Of a DNA stretch of 64,000 nucleotides, positions 35,216 to 47,630 are shown piece by piece. The DNA lies in the IMG/VR virus record IMGVR_UViG_3300010356_003454, positions 8,820 through 72,819 of that record; one strand, given 5' to 3'. The notes under the pieces were generated by a model. That model saw only the letters and a program-made list of their open reading frames with translations, ran no database searches and was not told the origin of the DNA. The stretch is from a virus (taxonomy: Duplodnaviria; Heunggongvirae; Uroviricota; Caudoviricetes). Made by a program: the position numbers and the translations under genes. Positions within the stretch are counted from its first letter, which is position 1; every line of letters starts with the position of its first letter.

Positions 35216-35686
35216 TTATCCTTTTAGCCATTCCTTCTTTGATAGGAATCCAGAAGCCATTCCATCCTGATAATGAAAGACCCTGGTTCCATCTGGTAAT
35301 TTTCCTTCTTGCCATATAAATGTTCCCCATTTATTAGTATTTGCCTGCCTCTTTTTAGGACCAACTGGCTGAAATTCTGCTAAGAATTCTTCGGAATCAA
35401 CATGTTCAGGCAGCTCGTTTTCAATATACCAGTCTTCATCAAATCCTGCATAGTCAGTAAATGCTAATGGATCTGAAGGATTATACTCTATTTCTTCTAA
35501 AAAATCAGGTGGAAGTCCTCCTTTTTGAAACCACTCTCTAGAGGAGTCACCTTCCATCGAATCTACTTCAGGAAATCCTTGCGATAGAATAGCCTTTTTA
35601 ATTCCATGATGGCCTATTCCTAGAGTATCATAAATATCGCCACCTCTTTGAAATTTTGCAGTCTCAAAAACTTTTTTAGCTCTCAT
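35216..35686 (-). CDS. Hypothetical protein with MRAKKVFE..FQRGGD...LGIG leader
   Basis: Leader shared with 51471..51872 and the C-terminal part of 46728..47630. Confidence 0.65.
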   Translation of the reverse strand: MRAKKVFETAKFQRGGDIYDTLGIGHHGIKKAILSQGFPEVDSMEGDSSREWFQKGGLPPDFLEEIEYNPSDPLAFTDYAGFDEDWYIENELPEHVDSEEFLAEFQPVGPKKRQANTNKWGTFIWQEGKLPDGTRVFHYQDGMASGFLSKKEWLKG

Positions 35687-37203
35687 TAGACAAATAGCAT
35701 ATATTCAATTTTGATATTAAATGTATGAGGATTATAGACATAGAATCCATCAATTAGATTATCGCAATCAGGACATCCGTCTGGAGCAGTAGTCCAAGCA
35801 TAGAAATCTCCAAACTTTCTCCAAAGATCGTTTGATGTAATATAATCCAAATAATCCCCGGCACTCATGATTGTTTCCGTAGATGATCCATTCATTCCTA
35901 CATCAAGTTTCTTAATGAATTTTTGATAATAAGTGGATGAATCTAAATATGTCTTAACAATAGAAGTGGACTCATTAATTCTTATTTCCTTACAATCCTC
36001 TAAAGTAGTTATTTCTTTTTCGCAATTATACAAAGTACATCTAATAAGCGAAACATCATATATTATGGAATTATAGATAGAAGAGTCAGATATTTCAGAA
36101 TTCCAAATGGTTGTCTCGTTTATAACAGAATTCCCTATAAATGATCTTTCTGATGCATCTATTTGAAATAAGTTAATATTGCTTTTTTCTATAACACTAT
36201 TTTGGAAATCCGTCCAGTATATCCTGGATTCGGTTATAGAGGAATCAACAACACTACAATTTATTAGGGAGCAATCATTTACAAGATCCGCAGGACCGAT
36301 TGTGATATCTTCTAAATCCATATCATATAATCCTGTGGTTACATCCTCAACAAATGGTCCAAAAATTATACTCGGATCAAAAGTTATTTGAATTTGGCTA
36401 AAATAATTGTCTATTTCAATAGGCTCATAAATTTTAACATAATCATTAACATGTTTAATATAGAGCCATTTATCATAAGGGGATTCAGGAGTAGAATTAG
36501 GATATGTGCTCTTCATAATTATTCCCTGCATAGCTCCGTTTGGATATTTAGCATAAAGAATATCATAGTCTTCTGATTCTTCTAAAGTATATGAATCCAA
36601 ATTGGCCTCATGAGGAAATGGGGATGCAGAATCTATTGATGCATCGATAATATTAAGTATAACATTAGAAGCTGTAAAATCAAATCCATCTACATCACCT
36701 GTAAATATTAAAGCGCTTGAATCAAGAGAGGCAGTAATGTTTATTCCCAAATTTCCAAATTGGATATTAAGAGCATCCACAATATTTATATTCTGAGAAT
36801 AATTTGCGGTGACATCTATAGCTTGATTGTAAAATTTAAAATTCTTATAGTAATTAATTGATAAATCAACACTAAAGAAATATGGATTTAGGGATTCATT
36901 ATAGCTTACTAGATATGGTAACAAAAATCCCTGCTGTCTCTGTTGAAGACCCTTTGATAGACCGGGAATATAGACTACCTCTCCCTGCCCTAAAACTTTA
37001 GTCTCAGTACTATAAGCAGTTACAGGTATAGATAAATTTGAAAAATCTATTTTTGCTAATATATCGCTTCCTGATATTATTCCTATTCCATCCTTAATAA
37101 ATTCTAGATTTGCTGAATCGGAAACCCCTGCACAGGGGGATAGAGCAGGATATACATAATCATTGCTGGGATTGTTAAATACGTCTATAGCCATTATAAG
37201 CAC
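35686..37203 (-). CDS. Putative virion structural protein
   Basis: 505 aa, D-x-S rich, with pentapeptide-like (S.I..S.I) segments; late-promoter motif upstream. Confidence 0.55.
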   Translation of the reverse strand: MLIMAIDVFNNPSNDYVYPALSPCAGVSDSANLEFIKDGIGIISGSDILAKIDFSNLSIPVTAYSTETKVLGQGEVVYIPGLSKGLQQRQQGFLLPYLVSYNESLNPYFFSVDLSINYYKNFKFYNQAIDVTANYSQNINIVDALNIQFGNLGINITASLDSSALIFTGDVDGFDFTASNVILNIIDASIDSASPFPHEANLDSYTLEESEDYDILYAKYPNGAMQGIIMKSTYPNSTPESPYDKWLYIKHVNDYVKIYEPIEIDNYFSQIQITFDPSIIFGPFVEDVTTGLYDMDLEDITIGPADLVNDCSLINCSVVDSSITESRIYWTDFQNSVIEKSNINLFQIDASERSFIGNSVINETTIWNSEISDSSIYNSIIYDVSLIRCTLYNCEKEITTLEDCKEIRINESTSIVKTYLDSSTYYQKFIKKLDVGMNGSSTETIMSAGDYLDYITSNDLWRKFGDFYAWTTAPDGCPDCDNLIDGFYVYNPHTFNIKIEYMLFV

Positions 37204-37786: not shown

Positions 37787-38080
37787 CTATATCCTATCCC
37801 ATGTGCGCCTTTCTCTAGGCTCAGGTATTCCAAATTTATTTAAAACTGGTTTTTCTTTCGGGACTGCTTTGACATCCACAACCTCAACCCCATCAATAAC
37901 CCGAGATGCATAATTTTCTGTCTTTCCAGAAGACGGATCAATATTCACCTCTTTTTTCCTAATTCTCTCTATCAGATCTTCTCCTGGAGAATATGGTTTA
38001 AGTTTTTCTAGGGATACTTCTGAATCTTTATCTGGGACGAGCTCTTTTTCTTCCCCTTGATCTAAGCTCGTCCCTAAGCT
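37787..38080 (-). CDS. 97-codon -1 frame extension of 38074..39066 (no start codon of its own)
   Basis: Hand-translated SLGTSLDQGEEKELVPDK...PEPRERRTWDRI*; entered through A-AAA-AAA at 38086-38080; fills the gap up to the next promoter. Confidence 0.65.
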   Translation of the reverse strand, partial: SLGTSLDQGEEKELVPDKDSEVSLEKLKPYSPGEDLIERIRKKEVNIDPSSGKTENYASRVIDGVEVVDVKAVPKEKPVLNKFGIPEPRERRTWDRI

Positions 38081-39066
38081 TTTTTTGAGGTTGGCGTTTT
38101 TTCAGGATCGTGTTTTACGAAAGCTCCCTTGGAAAATACATTATGATCGTCGTCAACATATTCAGCCATGAGATGCCATCCTCTCATCTTATTAACTGGA
38201 GCAGGATAGTATTTTCCATCTTTTTTCTCTTCATATACCCTAGGATGAGGATCCACTGTGACGGTTTCGGTTTTTATATCAATCTCAGGGATTTTTTCTT
38301 CTTTTGCTATCATTGAATCCTGAAGATCCATGAGATATTCTTGTTCTTCTTCAAAAGCCCTGTCCAATTCTTTATCTTCTAATAGAATACCTTCTGGAGA
38401 TTCTTCTATCTCTTCATCTGGTATTAGCTCAAAAGCCTCATCTGGGGGTGGTTCAGAATGAATTTCTTCGGATTCTTTAGACTCAGATAATTCCCTTTCC
38501 CTTATCCTTTTCTGAATTTCATTTTCAATAATTTCTTCTACTCTTTCAGGCGGAAGTTTCTCATCTTCATCGTCCTCCCCACCTAATTTTTCTCCTTTCG
38601 CTAAACGAATATTATCAGCAACCAATGCTGTCATACCTAAAGCCACAATAGGGAGAAGAGCTCCGGATATCCATGAAATAATAACTTTATACATTTCTTG
38701 ATTTTCAGCCTGTACTCCAAAAAGAATAGCTCTTTGCCAATAGGTCCAATCTGTTGATCCACTACTGTCCATAAATTTAAAGGAGGCATAAACGTTTGCT
38801 GTAACTTGAAGCGCTGTTAATAGGATCATCATTAGCCAAGCTAATATTCGATTCTTATTTTCTGTCATAAGAATGGAGAAAAGAACTGCTGCCTGACCAA
38901 TTTCATATGCTGCACCAAGCAATATTGCTAGGCCTAGTGAATTTGCAAGCTGAAAGAACGTTATAGCATGCAGGGTTGAAACGAAAGCAACTGCTAAATA
39001 TAGAGCAGTAAAGGTACCTATTAAGGCCCAATATAATTTTTTACTTCTATGAATTAATTTTGACAT
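38074..39066 (-). CDS. Membrane protein (about 4 TM helices) with long acidic tail
   Basis: Four hydrophobic segments in the first 150 aa, then an E/D-rich region. Confidence 0.75.
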   Translation of the reverse strand: MSKLIHRSKKLYWALIGTFTALYLAVAFVSTLHAITFFQLANSLGLAILLGAAYEIGQAAVLFSILMTENKNRILAWLMMILLTALQVTANVYASFKFMDSSGSTDWTYWQRAILFGVQAENQEMYKVIISWISGALLPIVALGMTALVADNIRLAKGEKLGGEDDEDEKLPPERVEEIIENEIQKRIRERELSESKESEEIHSEPPPDEAFELIPDEEIEESPEGILLEDKELDRAFEEEQEYLMDLQDSMIAKEEKIPEIDIKTETVTVDPHPRVYEEKKDGKYYPAPVNKMRGWHLMAEYVDDDHNVFSKGAFVKHDPEKTPTSKKA

Positions 39067-39077
39067 ATTATTTTATT

Positions 39078-39410
39078 TTATTTACTTTTCCAGATTTTTA
39101 ATCCTGGGAATCCACATTCAGGACAAGTTGTTCCTTCATGAATTTGATTTTGATTACCTCCGCATGTTTTACACTTGGAATGTTTTTTAACGTATTCTTG
39201 CAAATTAGCATAATTATCTAATAATACGCCTATTTGACTTTTTAAGTTTTTAATAGTTGCTTGAAGTTCTCCAACTCGTGTTCCGTCACCACACGAGCAT
39301 TTATACATGCCCTTTTGGGGATCCGCATCAATCGGAAATTCTATTTTTCCATCACAAAAAGAACAGATGTTTTCTTTATTGTAATATTTTTCCTCTTTTT
39401 TAAATCCCAT
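39078..39410 (-). CDS. Zinc-ribbon / coiled-coil protein
   Basis: CSFC, CSCG, CKTCG and CPECG pairs. Confidence 0.65.
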   Translation of the reverse strand: MGFKKEEKYYNKENICSFCDGKIEFPIDADPQKGMYKCSCGDGTRVGELQATIKNLKSQIGVLLDNYANLQEYVKKHSKCKTCGGNQNQIHEGTTCPECGFPGLKIWKSK

Positions 39411-39793
39411 TATTTTTTATTTAAAGTATCTCTTTCTGCCCCTTTAATTTCAATAGTGGTATTTGTGCGGATTCTTTCCGCAGTTCTTTGTACTGCTTCT
39501 GCTCTTCTTTGAGCTTCATCTACCTTAATACCCGCAATTTTTAAATCTGTAGTAAGATCTTTAATAAGAAATTCTCTAGTTAGGATCTCGTTATCTAAAG
39601 AATCTATTATGAAATTTTTCTCTTTTATGATTTGATCTTTTATTTGTAATAATGAATCGCATTGCTCGGATAGATTTTTATTCTGAATCCTAATAGTAGC
39701 TTTTCGATTGCAGCTCTGGAAGGACTTTATAAAGAACAAAAACACTAATGCTAATGTAATCCACTTAAGATTTTTCTTAAGCCATTTTTCCAT
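39410..39793 (-). CDS. Membrane-anchored coiled-coil protein (i-spanin-like)
   Basis: N-terminal TM (WITLALVFLFFI) followed by coiled coil. Confidence 0.5.
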   Translation of the reverse strand: MEKWLKKNLKWITLALVFLFFIKSFQSCNRKATIRIQNKNLSEQCDSLLQIKDQIIKEKNFIIDSLDNEILTREFLIKDLTTDLKIAGIKVDEAQRRAEAVQRTAERIRTNTTIEIKGAERDTLNKK

Positions 39794-40335: not shown

Positions 40336-40809
40336 TTAGTTACCAAATAGGACGAATCCTAGATTAAATTCAAATGTGAATGCGTTTCCATCAGGACACC
40401 ATCCATATCCCACTCCTGCTCGAGACCAAACTCCTCCTGCATCATATTTCATACCTATTGTTGCAATAGTCATAGGCGATGTGAATTCGCCCCCCCAGCT
40501 ATCTTCATAACGAAATCCTTGAGAAGCTTCTGCAAGAGACACATAGTAGGAGGATCCATATTCGCCTGCTTTAGCAGTATAATAAGTTATTACTCCTGAA
40601 AAGGAGTGAATTCTTTCTCCAGACATTGGCATCTTAGTTGGCATCCAGCCACCGGCGAGACCAAAGTTTCCAAATTGTGCTTCGGCGCCAAGAACGCCAT
40701 ACGACCAAGAGTAACCTCCCTGAACGCTAAAGTTCATTGGAGTTTGAGAGTTTGCTGTAAATACACTAAGCATAAACAGCATGACAATTGCAGAAAAGAT
40801 TTTTTTCAT
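40336..40809 (-). CDS. Outer-membrane beta-barrel protein
   Basis: Sec signal MKKIFSAIVMLFMLSVFTANS, alternating Gly/aromatic strands, terminal FEFNLGFVLF. Confidence 0.7.
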   Translation of the reverse strand: MKKIFSAIVMLFMLSVFTANSQTPMNFSVQGGYSWSYGVLGAEAQFGNFGLAGGWMPTKMPMSGERIHSFSGVITYYTAKAGEYGSSYYVSLAEASQGFRYEDSWGGEFTSPMTIATIGMKYDAGGVWSRAGVGYGWCPDGNAFTFEFNLGFVLFGN

Positions 40810-45871: not shown

Positions 45872-46726
45872 ATGGATTTCCTTATGCAATTGTTGAGGTC
45901 TTTATTATCTTTATTTTCAAAAAAAGAAGAGGTTATCGAAGATGTAAAGCCAGAGACACCGGAACCGGAGGAGAAACCTTCGGAACCGGAAAACAAAAAT
46001 GAAGAGCCTATGTACGACTGGTCAAATTTAAAACCGCTAGATATTTCTGATTCTGATCTTGTTCAAGTAGATTGGCTAAAATATTATAAAGTTGAATGGC
46101 CAAAAGATCAGATAGTTCTGCATCATACTGTAAGCGGTCCGGGAATTCAAGGGGATTTAAATACCTGGAAGAATTTTACCTCCCATATAGCAACTTGTAT
46201 GATTGTTGAAAGAGGTGGAAAGATAAATCAATTATTCTCATCTAAGTATTGGGGGTATCATCTTGGAGCAGGAAAGACCTCTCTAGATCAGAGATCAATA
46301 GCTATTGAATTGGATAACTGGGGTGGATTATTCCTTGGAGATGGAAATAATAAGCAATTTGGAAAAAATGCAGATGGAACTCCTAGAATTATTAAAACTA
46401 TACAGGGAAAATTTTATACAGTTTACGGATCGGTAGTAGATGTTCCCGTAACTCATTATCCTGATGGATTCAGAGGATATTATTATTACGAATCCTATAC
46501 TTATGAGCAATTAAAGGCTATAGGCGAATTAATTCTTCTATGGAATCAGAGATTTGGTATTCCTCTAGACTATAAAGAGGATATGTGGGATGTATCACAA
46601 AAAGCTCTATCGGGGGAGAAGGGAGTTTGGACGCACGTTTCTTATAGAAAACCATCTGATAAACAAGATTGCCACCCCCAGCCTGAGCTTATCGACCTAT
46701 TGAAATATTTACATAAATTAGTATAA
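45872..46726 (+). CDS. N-acetylmuramoyl-L-alanine amidase (Amidase_2-like endolysin)
   Basis: QIVLHHT, SIAIELDNWG, VWTHVSYR..KQDCHP. Confidence 0.85.
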   Translation: MDFLMQLLRSLLSLFSKKEEVIEDVKPETPEPEEKPSEPENKNEEPMYDWSNLKPLDISDSDLVQVDWLKYYKVEWPKDQIVLHHTVSGPGIQGDLNTWKNFTSHIATCMIVERGGKINQLFSSKYWGYHLGAGKTSLDQRSIAIELDNWGGLFLGDGNNKQFGKNADGTPRIIKTIQGKFYTVYGSVVDVPVTHYPDGFRGYYYYESYTYEQLKAIGELILLWNQRFGIPLDYKEDMWDVSQKALSGEKGVWTHVSYRKPSDKQDCHPQPELIDLLKYLHKLV

Positions 46727-46727
46727 T

Positions 46728-47630
46728 ATGAAATTTATATCCTTAAATAGATGGCTAAACGAACAGACTCTTAGGGGAAATGTATCTGATCAGAGCAAAC
46801 CTGCAGAGGACGTTAAATACGGATGCGTTATGATGGACACAAAGATTCCAAATTGGGAGGAATATCATACTGCAGGCATTGATGAGGATGATGTTTATAT
46901 TAAGCCTCACGATAAATCATATGGACTTGAAACAGATCCTCACGTTACAGTAGTTTATGGAATCCATGAGGATGAAATAGATCCAGAGACAGTGGCTAGT
47001 GTTATTAAAGCAAATATGAAGCCCCTTACGGTAACTATTGATGAAATTGATATATTTGAAGGAGATGAATACGATGTGGTGAAATACAACGTTCCTGTAA
47101 ATGATCAGCTGCAGGAATATCGAGATCTTTTTTTAAAGTTTCCTAATACCCAAACATTTCCTGAATATCATCCTCACATGACTATTGCTTATGTTAAGCC
47201 GGGAGCGGGAAAGAAATATAAAAGAAAACTTCGAGATCCCTTTGAAGTTACTTTTACAGATGGGGTTTATTCATATCACGATAATCCGGATGATCCTGAA
47301 GATTTCACAAGAAAGGTCTATAATTTAGAGGACGGCGGGAAAAAGAAAAGGGTAGATGAAAATGTTGGATTTGAGAGGGGGGTGGAGCCTTATGAAGCAT
47401 TAGGGATTGGAGAAAAAAGATTTATAAATCAAGTTGTCAACAGGGTTTTTAATATTACAAAGAATTCAATTTGGAGCGAATATGGATATCCACCACCATC
47501 TAAAAAAGATATAGAAGAATGGGCGGAGAATTTAGCTTCTTATATAGGTATTGAAACCCTTGTTGAAGATGAAGATAGGGCTCTTAGCGATGCTTTTGAA
47601 GAACACTGGATGGAGAAAAATGAACAATAA
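46728..47630 (+). CDS. 2H phosphoesterase (T4 gp57B/Acb1-like) with leader and C-terminal module
   Basis: Two HxT motifs, PHVTVVY and TFPEYHPHMTIAY. Confidence 0.8.
   Translation: MKFISLNRWLNEQTLRGNVSDQSKPAEDVKYGCVMMDTKIPNWEEYHTAGIDEDDVYIKPHDKSYGLETDPHVTVVYGIHEDEIDPETVASVIKANMKPLTVTIDEIDIFEGDEYDVVKYNVPVNDQLQEYRDLFLKFPNTQTFPEYHPHMTIAYVKPGAGKKYKRKLRDPFEVTFTDGVYSYHDNPDDPEDFTRKVYNLEDGGKKKRVDENVGFERGVEPYEALGIGEKRFINQVVNRVFNITKNSIWSEYGYPPPSKKDIEEWAENLASYIGIETLVEDEDRALSDAFEEHWMEKNEQ

Follow-up and report, generated by a model that had tools for sequence, protein, structure and literature searches.

A putative programmed −1 frameshift of two polarities in a family of phage membrane proteins

Does a tailed-phage gene that ends in its own stop codon give rise to a second, longer membrane protein through a ribosomal slip just ahead of that stop, and what would keep such an arrangement in place? 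The window (the whole stretch of 64,000 nucleotides analyzed here, contained in a 137-kb contig with 35% GC) raises this question on its minus strand, where the frame-0 ORF of a predicted membrane protein closes with TCA AAA AAA GCT TAG and an open −1 frame runs on beyond it. The mechanism itself is textbook; however, most of the cases known from phages concern tail chaperones or extended capsid and tail proteins, whereas here it would operate in a widespread and unnamed family of membrane proteins from large, uncultured Lak-related phages. A preliminary description of this DNA proposed that −1 programmed ribosomal frameshifting (PRF) yields a short and a long form of a protein with four transmembrane segments. 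We recomputed the coordinates of the heptamer, the 5-nt spacer, the 10-bp stem, the loop and the 97-codon −1 frame, all of which agree with that description, and the locus is laid out as follows:

38599..39066, minus strand: membrane domain, residues 1–156, four long helices
38074..39066, minus strand: frame-0 ORF, the short form, 330 aa, 37.6 kDa
38107..38184, minus strand: RGWH..E.VD..GNVF motif, shortly before the shift site
38080..38086, minus strand: slippery heptamer A_AAA_AAA in the frame-0 register, followed by an invariant G (38079)
38074..38076, minus strand: frame-0 stop TAG, its G being the first base of the stem
38034..38074, minus strand: stem 1 of the stimulator, arms 38074–38064 and 38044–38034, 5 nt past the heptamer
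38010..38056, minus strand: probable stem 2, loop GGGGA (38056–38052) with TCCCT (38014–38010)
37787..38080, minus strand: −1-frame extension, 97 codons, TAG at 37789–37787

The short form comprises the four-helix membrane domain, an acidic low-complexity linker, the RGWH motif and a terminal ...KKA-stop. The 5-nt spacer (38079–38075) leads into stem 1, which has 10 Watson–Crick pairs (38074–38065 with 38043–38034) and one U–G pair and encloses a loop of 19 nt in the window. This hairpin (−20.7 kcal/mol; z −2.3 over 75 nt) is the strongest found after any of the 274 A6R runs in the 137-kb contig, and among the candidates there that combine a heptamer with overlapping ORFs it alone is strongly structured, the runner-up reaching −9.7. 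The extension keeps the blocks GEDLI, GVEVVDVKA (37891), FGIP (37834) and a terminal WDRI-stop; it would bring the long form to 426 aa and 48.5 kDa, with the tryptic peptide SLGTSLDQGEEK specific to that form. Going upstream, the −1 frame meets a stop at the 6th codon, and its first start codon is a GTG at 37948, 44 codons past the shift. Database-predicted proteins for such genes terminate at the frame-0 stop. The "next promoter" that had been placed past the extension gained no support, sigma-70 matches not being in excess.

The run of seven A residues appears genuine: exactly seven are present in two independent near-identical assemblies (L064 and L066) and in divergent homologues, and an RNA-library contig crosses the site without an indel in the run, albeit contigs hide rare variants. 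A sequencing error is ruled out on these grounds. A 1-nt deletion at 38104 in one RNA contig of depth 2 was taken as noise.

Scans of viral, metagenome and genome collections for homologues yielded 80 distinct gene ends, the window included, of which 69 keep the element of heptamer, spacer and stem, which bears out the conservation that the preliminary description had named as a check; since many loci are closely related, such counts overstate independence. The element is not universal, being missing from about 11 of the 80 loci and from the distant homologues checked. To avoid circularity, we took a set of loci solely by the presence of an EVxDxK block downstream in the −1 frame (n = 45), and every one of them has A_AAA_AAA in the frame-0 register with G as the next base, as compared to 50 of 219 other Lys-Lys pairs in these genes (23%). 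Within the block, third positions vary about nine-fold more than first and second positions (0.38 versus 0.04), and ATG, GTG and TTG are all absent ahead of it in 14 of the 45 loci, with start positions scattered in the rest. Moreover, a profile of the −1 extensions matches the frame-0 C-termini of those relatives in which the tail lies in frame (see below) with E-values down to 4e-22, which confirms the extension as a real protein. These comparisons show that the −1 frame is under coding selection.

Comparison of the loci likewise shows stem 1 to be kept by strong covariation. On a plain MAFFT alignment there are 97 two-sided changes in it as against 31.5 in shuffled alignments (0 of 500 shuffles), a signal that collapses when the stem is slid, and 14 different 8-nt sequences occur in the 5′ arm. 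RNAalifold, unprompted, chooses a helix starting 5 nt past the heptamer, within the textbook spacing of 5–8 nt from heptamer to stimulator (PMC4066793). None of the 44 in-frame A7G sites in neighboring genes has such a stem, and searches of Rfam returned no match. A_AAA_AAG, which is highly shifty in E. coli, replaces A_AAA_AAA in a single one of 68 scored loci. In the literature that we searched, whose coverage was incomplete, we found no description of the membrane-protein family or its signal.

The further guess that the hairpin loop pairs with downstream sequence as a pseudoknot receives moderate support from pairing energies, codon choice and co-changing partners. Across loci, the partner strand of the loop lies about 6–33 nt past stem 1, and the mean helix energy of stem 2 is −6.1 for its own pairing as compared to −2.0 with shuffled flanks, −2.8 to −4.0 at other places in these genes and −4.5 with non-cognate partners. 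Rare codons are favored in both arms: the loop Gly is GGG in 24 of 34 cases versus 16%, and a C precedes Pro in 26 of 72 versus 57 of 671. The partners co-change across lineages (GGGG/CCCC, GAGG/CCTC, GGAGT/ACTCC and GGAGC/GCTCC), albeit with few independent changes. The connector from stem 2 to the 3′ arm of stem 1 measures 6–7 nt in the window, rather than the 0–1 nt of a coaxial stack. Given a connector longer than in the canonical H-type and the few independent compensations, we regard the formation of stem 2 as probable, and the structure would be a non-canonical pseudoknot at best.

What the signal does to the protein differs between relatives. In 49 loci (about 70% of the signal-bearing ones, the window among them) the slip adds the tail, and we term these extend-type; in 20 loci (about 30%; 19 by script and L018 by eye, with 11 loci lacking the element) the tail is in frame 0 and the slip removes it, and we term these truncate-type. 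The truncate-type loci have A_AAA_AAA-G at the homologous place, the 5-nt spacing, a covarying stem and an equivalent loop–downstream pairing; however, their frame 0 runs on for 106–134 codons, while the −1 frame gives just an unconserved basic stub, 7–44 residues long. The frame-0 TAG has become a sense codon in all truncate-type and a few extend-type loci. Modulo 3, the span that begins at the heptamer and closes with the stem equals 1 in 49 of 49 extend-type loci and 2 in 19 of 19 scored truncate-type loci, and this complete separation of the classes places the frame-switching indel inside the hairpin; L007 lacks one loop base relative to the truncate-type stems. Polarity also goes along with the upstream motif: RGWH is present in 46 of 49 extend-type loci, while an AT-hook-like GRP motif takes its place in 18 of 19 truncate-type loci. 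The RGWH motif has no consistent match in Pfam or PHROGs, with a weak match to phrog_8612 in homologues.

The membrane-domain tree and the 3′ module are discordant, with 11 apparent polarity changes on that tree. Recombination of the 3′ module is the probable reason; polarity may in truth have flipped just once or twice, and with such apparent exchange the tree cannot tell gain from loss. Homologues fused in frame without the stem had been named as an observation that would speak against frameshifting, an objection that mostly falls away, given that most in-frame homologues keep both heptamer and stem. The notion that the "fused" and "A9-only" homologues are signal-free is likewise overturned, as most of the fused ones have both at the homologous place; an in-frame fusion of a homologue need not mean that the signal is lost, and this should be checked first. 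With the slip adding the tail in about 70% and removing it in about 30% of signal-bearing loci, both protein forms seem to be needed by these phages. Further, the retention of the element where frame 0 is already open points to selection for a two-product ratio rather than the rescue of a broken gene. What is selected thus appears to be that tail-bearing copies are kept at a fraction of the total, and the family offers a natural experiment on why frameshifts persist.

Comparison of the homologues also brings out a second slip site. In 19 loci an A run precedes the final ~20 residues (DKFGIP...FDRI), which lie out of frame; the run is A9 in 18 of these loci and A10 in one, and is not followed by a strong structure. 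Where the FDRI peptide is in frame, the runs have at most 8 A, except for two loci with A11. The first site is also present in 18 of the 19 (5 extend-type and 13 truncate-type), while the window gene has the first site only. Nine A residues is the usual length for polymerase slippage (PMC1088944), which may be what happens at the second site, if it is not a ribosomal shift. With the two sites in tandem, three nested products are predicted. On balance, we favor the view that a single family combines a pseudoknot-stimulated slip in both polarities, switched by a one-base indel in the loop, with a polymerase-slippage A9 site to give three nested forms, and that this natural variation tunes what share of the copies in a membrane complex bears a C-terminal docking peptide. 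The tandem loci are L004, L005, L007, L116 and L137, with further ones in L018, L029, L031, L033, L037, L039, L048, L051, L062, L096, L108, L124 and L028 (A10). L020 and L114 carry A11 runs, the tail being in frame there, and a shift of the opposite sense would be needed in L028 and L041.

In a sister subfamily the gene closes with ...LKKK-stop, encoded by A10 + TAA, and the −1 frame holds another conserved tail, of 50–90 codons; about 20 protein representatives show the LKKK-stop ending. Its loci include L146:2010–2300, L148:4290–4480, L147:3575–3699, L119 and L142, some with a hairpin about 20–25 nt downstream. Several distant members (P0125, P0130, P0131, P0135, P0138, P0140, P0144, P0146, P0147 and P0149) have another conserved C-terminal peptide of the ..HFINL type, in line with docking through a C-terminal motif; the frameshift is absent in both of those whose DNA was checked.

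The 137-kb contig encodes a T4-like tail sheath and tube and a terminase, and the annotated proteins that best match the sheath, with about 41% identity, come from Prevotella Lak megaphages. Contigs with homologues of the membrane-protein gene reach 260–405 kb. Lak phages reassign TAG. In the genome studied here TAG ends 24 of 179 long ORFs, and the standard genetic code is in use, with TAG among the ordinary stops. Gene leaders are A-rich, with Shine–Dalgarno motifs in 9 of 103. The Lak-like sheath, the standard code and such leaders together point to a host among the Bacteroidota. Near-identical DNA is present in wastewater, sludge and digester runs. Lak genomes gave no match to the membrane protein, INPHARED gave a single distant homologue (LR756500.1, 462 kb) without the frameshift signal, and the one match among GTDB genomes is on a 3.9-kb MAG contig that is probably a binned phage.

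We consider it very likely that the first site serves programmed −1 ribosomal frameshifting at A_AAA_AAA. With two tRNA-Lys on the heptamer, the ribosome would meet the GC-rich and probably pseudoknotted stem 5 nt downstream, whereupon a fraction of ribosomes would slip back one base and translate 97 more codons, while the remainder would stop two codons later. The products would be two inner-membrane proteins with a common four-helix domain, of which only the longer has a cytoplasmic tail with a conserved peptide at its end; relatives would keep two products either with a long frame-0 and a short −1 form or through an A9 site gating the last ~20 residues. The locus shows the features by which −1 PRF is recognized, namely an in-register heptamer within the frame overlap, a covarying stimulator at the 5–8 nt expected and a coding −1 frame without its own start. 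The original proposal of a short (330 aa) and a long (426 aa) form accordingly gains strong comparative support from the heptamer (45/45), the stem covariation and the polarity classes.

We infer that both forms are made and that ribosomes rather than RNA polymerase do the slipping, because register, spacing and covariation are readable by a ribosome, and a polymerase still positioned over the run cannot be affected by a stem further downstream. Were the polymerase to slip on A7 and add one A, the A8 mRNA would encode the identical long protein and the hairpin might then serve mRNA protection or pausing; the junction peptide cannot separate the two mechanisms, since the protein is the same either way. 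Such slippage would fit a run that is nearly always pure A, and the family's own second site is structure-less and A9 in 18 of 19 cases, the length seen in the dnaX of T. thermophilus and in IS elements (PMC1088944). However, seven A residues fall short of the usual nine, and an A7 run with a fixed stem does not correspond to a slippage site. The stem is as yet untranscribed while the polymerase is on the run, and the RNA stimulator known for bacterial slippage lies upstream (Roseiflexus IS630, PMC5009743). Moreover, the stem is fixed at 5 nt and the run at one codon register in both classes, and the bridging RNA contig carries no insertion, a weak point in itself; hence we hold slippage at this site to be improbable.

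Alternatives that dispense with slipping altogether fare still worse, and we rejected them on TAG usage, missing starts and loop length. The downstream frame could form a small gene that is started independently, since the GTG at 37948 opens a 53-aa ORF and the G-rich loop might offer a purine-rich ribosome-binding site; this is highly improbable given the loci without any start before the block (14 of 45) and the scattered starts in the others, the occurrence of the same sequence as the in-frame C-terminus of other relatives, the scarcity of Shine–Dalgarno motifs (9/103) and the invariant heptamer that such a gene would leave unexplained. We give equally little credence to UAG readthrough or a Lak-like reassignment of TAG, or to an antisense terminator (stem plus T7 on the plus strand), even with Lak phages as the closest annotated relatives by tail sheath and the G of the TAG abutting the stem. 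Ordinary TAG usage (24/179) and the failure to find tRNA genes weigh against recoding. Readthrough would gain little, as frame 0 stays open for only 3 codons here (median 8 across loci) and is unconserved there, and the element is kept where the TAG is a sense codon. As for a terminator, the 19-nt loop is too long, no terminator-like call falls on the site, and the flanking genes are on the minus strand.

The closest mechanistic likeness is to E. coli dnaX (tau/gamma) and the IS1/IS3 transposases, which likewise use a lysine X_XXZ_ZZN with a stem-loop or pseudoknot 5–8 nt on to make two products (PMC4066793, PMC5009743); for A_AAA_AAA followed by a stem-loop there is a proven example among IS elements (PMC4066793). 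The protein here is unrelated, however, with A_AAA_AAA rather than A_AAA_AAG, and an upstream Shine–Dalgarno stimulator is unexpected in the inferred host type. Its family, in contrast to those systems, also has both polarities and both kinds of site, often in tandem. That the two mechanisms can reach the same outcome is illustrated by dnaX itself, for which E. coli relies on a ribosomal shift and T. thermophilus on polymerase slippage at A9 (PMC1088944). As in lambda gpG/gpGT, T7/T3, A2 and A118, the last codons would slip by −1 and a C-terminal part would be added in a minority of molecules (PMC5009743). In contrast to those cases, this is a polytopic membrane protein without homology to them, located away from tape-measure, capsid and tail genes, with a strong covarying stimulator and a polarity reversal in relatives; the small soluble pair between tail-tube and tape-measure genes that marks tail-assembly chaperones G/GT is not what is found here.

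The nearest precedent that we found for the polarity flip is the P/V editing of paramyxoviruses, in which the default product is swapped between lineages (Sendai/measles versus rubulaviruses) and both are kept (PMC5009743). There, however, it is an RNA polymerase that stutters, in RNA viruses of animals, and both products have functional C-termini, whereas the short form here ends at once or in the unconserved basic stub of 7–44 aa. The tssM1 of Citrobacter rodentium (A11) resembles the present case as an inner-membrane protein with a lipoprotein partner and two lengths whose ratio matters (PMC4256274); it differs in its polymerase slippage, its periplasmic C-terminal domain, its T6SS context and the lack of homology. 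The dozens of covarying stimulator variants would make a test set for frameshifting on Bacteroidota-type ribosomes.

What the protein might do is suggested by its motifs and gene order, on which all of the following function readings draw. The claim of four transmembrane segments is backed by the predicted AlphaFold model, a confident four-helix bundle (pLDDT 92), while a fold prediction from 10 sequences was unusable (pLDDT 58). The membrane domain has 697 cluster representatives at E ≤ 1e-3 and carries the invariant polar residues S30, H33, N42, E55, Q87 and N91; its charge distribution suggests an N-in/C-in topology with both termini cytoplasmic. Pfam and PHROGs gave no consistent family for the protein, its tail or the 132 members, and the ESM Atlas matches were unnamed viral clusters only. 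In PDB searches with Foldseek and VIA-align nothing rose above helical-bundle noise (best Z 7.2), and the clear structural matches were all to uncharacterized phage proteins. Weak structural similarity extends to proteins of Tenacibaculum phages pT24/PTm1, to DUF2637 phage proteins (TM 0.60–0.67, Foldseek E ~0.1; no Pfam sequence match) and to phiC31 gp25 (TM 0.46), the last two of which we take to be possible relatives of SpdB2. SpdB2 of Streptomyces is a membrane protein with four helices that oligomerizes, forms pores and binds DNA, and it is known from actinophages too (PMC4447253); with different hosts and no sequence match, we treat this as a lead only.

The gene sits in a conserved block with a sigma factor, an exonuclease and a lipoprotein-like partner:

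39410..39793, minus strand: partner gene, 127 aa, hydrophobic N-terminus plus QSC (lipoprotein-like) and a coiled coil

The partner gene is upstream within the examined flank in 72 loci of the neighborhood set and also stands beside distant homologues. It has a near-invariant Cys28 and is co-conserved even in distant relatives without the frameshift signal. Between the two genes in the window, 39078–39410 (minus strand) encodes 110 aa with two zinc-ribbon-like Cys clusters and is missing there in most relatives.

We tentatively posit that the protein is a membrane-embedded tether or scaffold acting with the neighboring lipoprotein, in which the basic/AT-hook-like and C-terminal motifs would dock phage DNA or protein at the envelope. 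Since all the arrangements make the tail-bearing form a fraction, as in dnaX tau/gamma or TssM, we propose a presumably oligomeric membrane complex in which only some copies have the docking tail. The tether is slightly favored over a holin-like and an exclusion role, the two that the preliminary description had suggested. Of these, a lysis protein with effector and regulator forms and the neighboring lipoprotein as part of a spanin is a weaker candidate. The gene order of the sister A10 subfamily lends it some support (sigma factor, Rz-like gene with a weak match at E 0.02–0.03, lipoprotein, membrane gene and Amidase_2, so that the lipoprotein/membrane pair is flanked by lysis-type genes), as does the retention of the lipoprotein-like neighbor throughout the family. 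However, the amidase in the window genome lies about 7 kb away on the other strand, and no holin family was consistently matched by the 132 members, albeit holins are too diverse for a missing match to exclude such a role. The strongly conserved domain with invariant buried polar residues and the cytoplasmic tail of 170–270 aa with AT-hook-like motifs also count against it, both being unusual for holins. Superinfection exclusion, or another remodeling of the host envelope, appears unlikely: an inner-membrane protein paired with a lipoprotein and polar intramembrane residues would suit a channel, but no known exclusion family was matched and the gene lies in the conserved core block rather than an accessory region. 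The earlier suggestion of a holin/antiholin pair or an exclusion factor is thus not established; it draws on the sister-subfamily gene order, with a membrane tether at least as likely.

Elsewhere in the window, the amidase (45872–46726) adjoins a 2H-phosphoesterase at 46728–47630 (plus strand) with a weak match to the anti-CBASS protein Acb1 (E 6e-4). The gene at 40336–40809 (minus strand) encodes 157 aa with a signal peptide and a C-terminal Phe, has no Pfam match and resembles a small outer-membrane beta-barrel. Downstream of the membrane-protein gene, 35686–37203 (minus strand) is kept in 42 loci and has a pentapeptide-like repeat region, with a GTG or ATG start likely near 37203.
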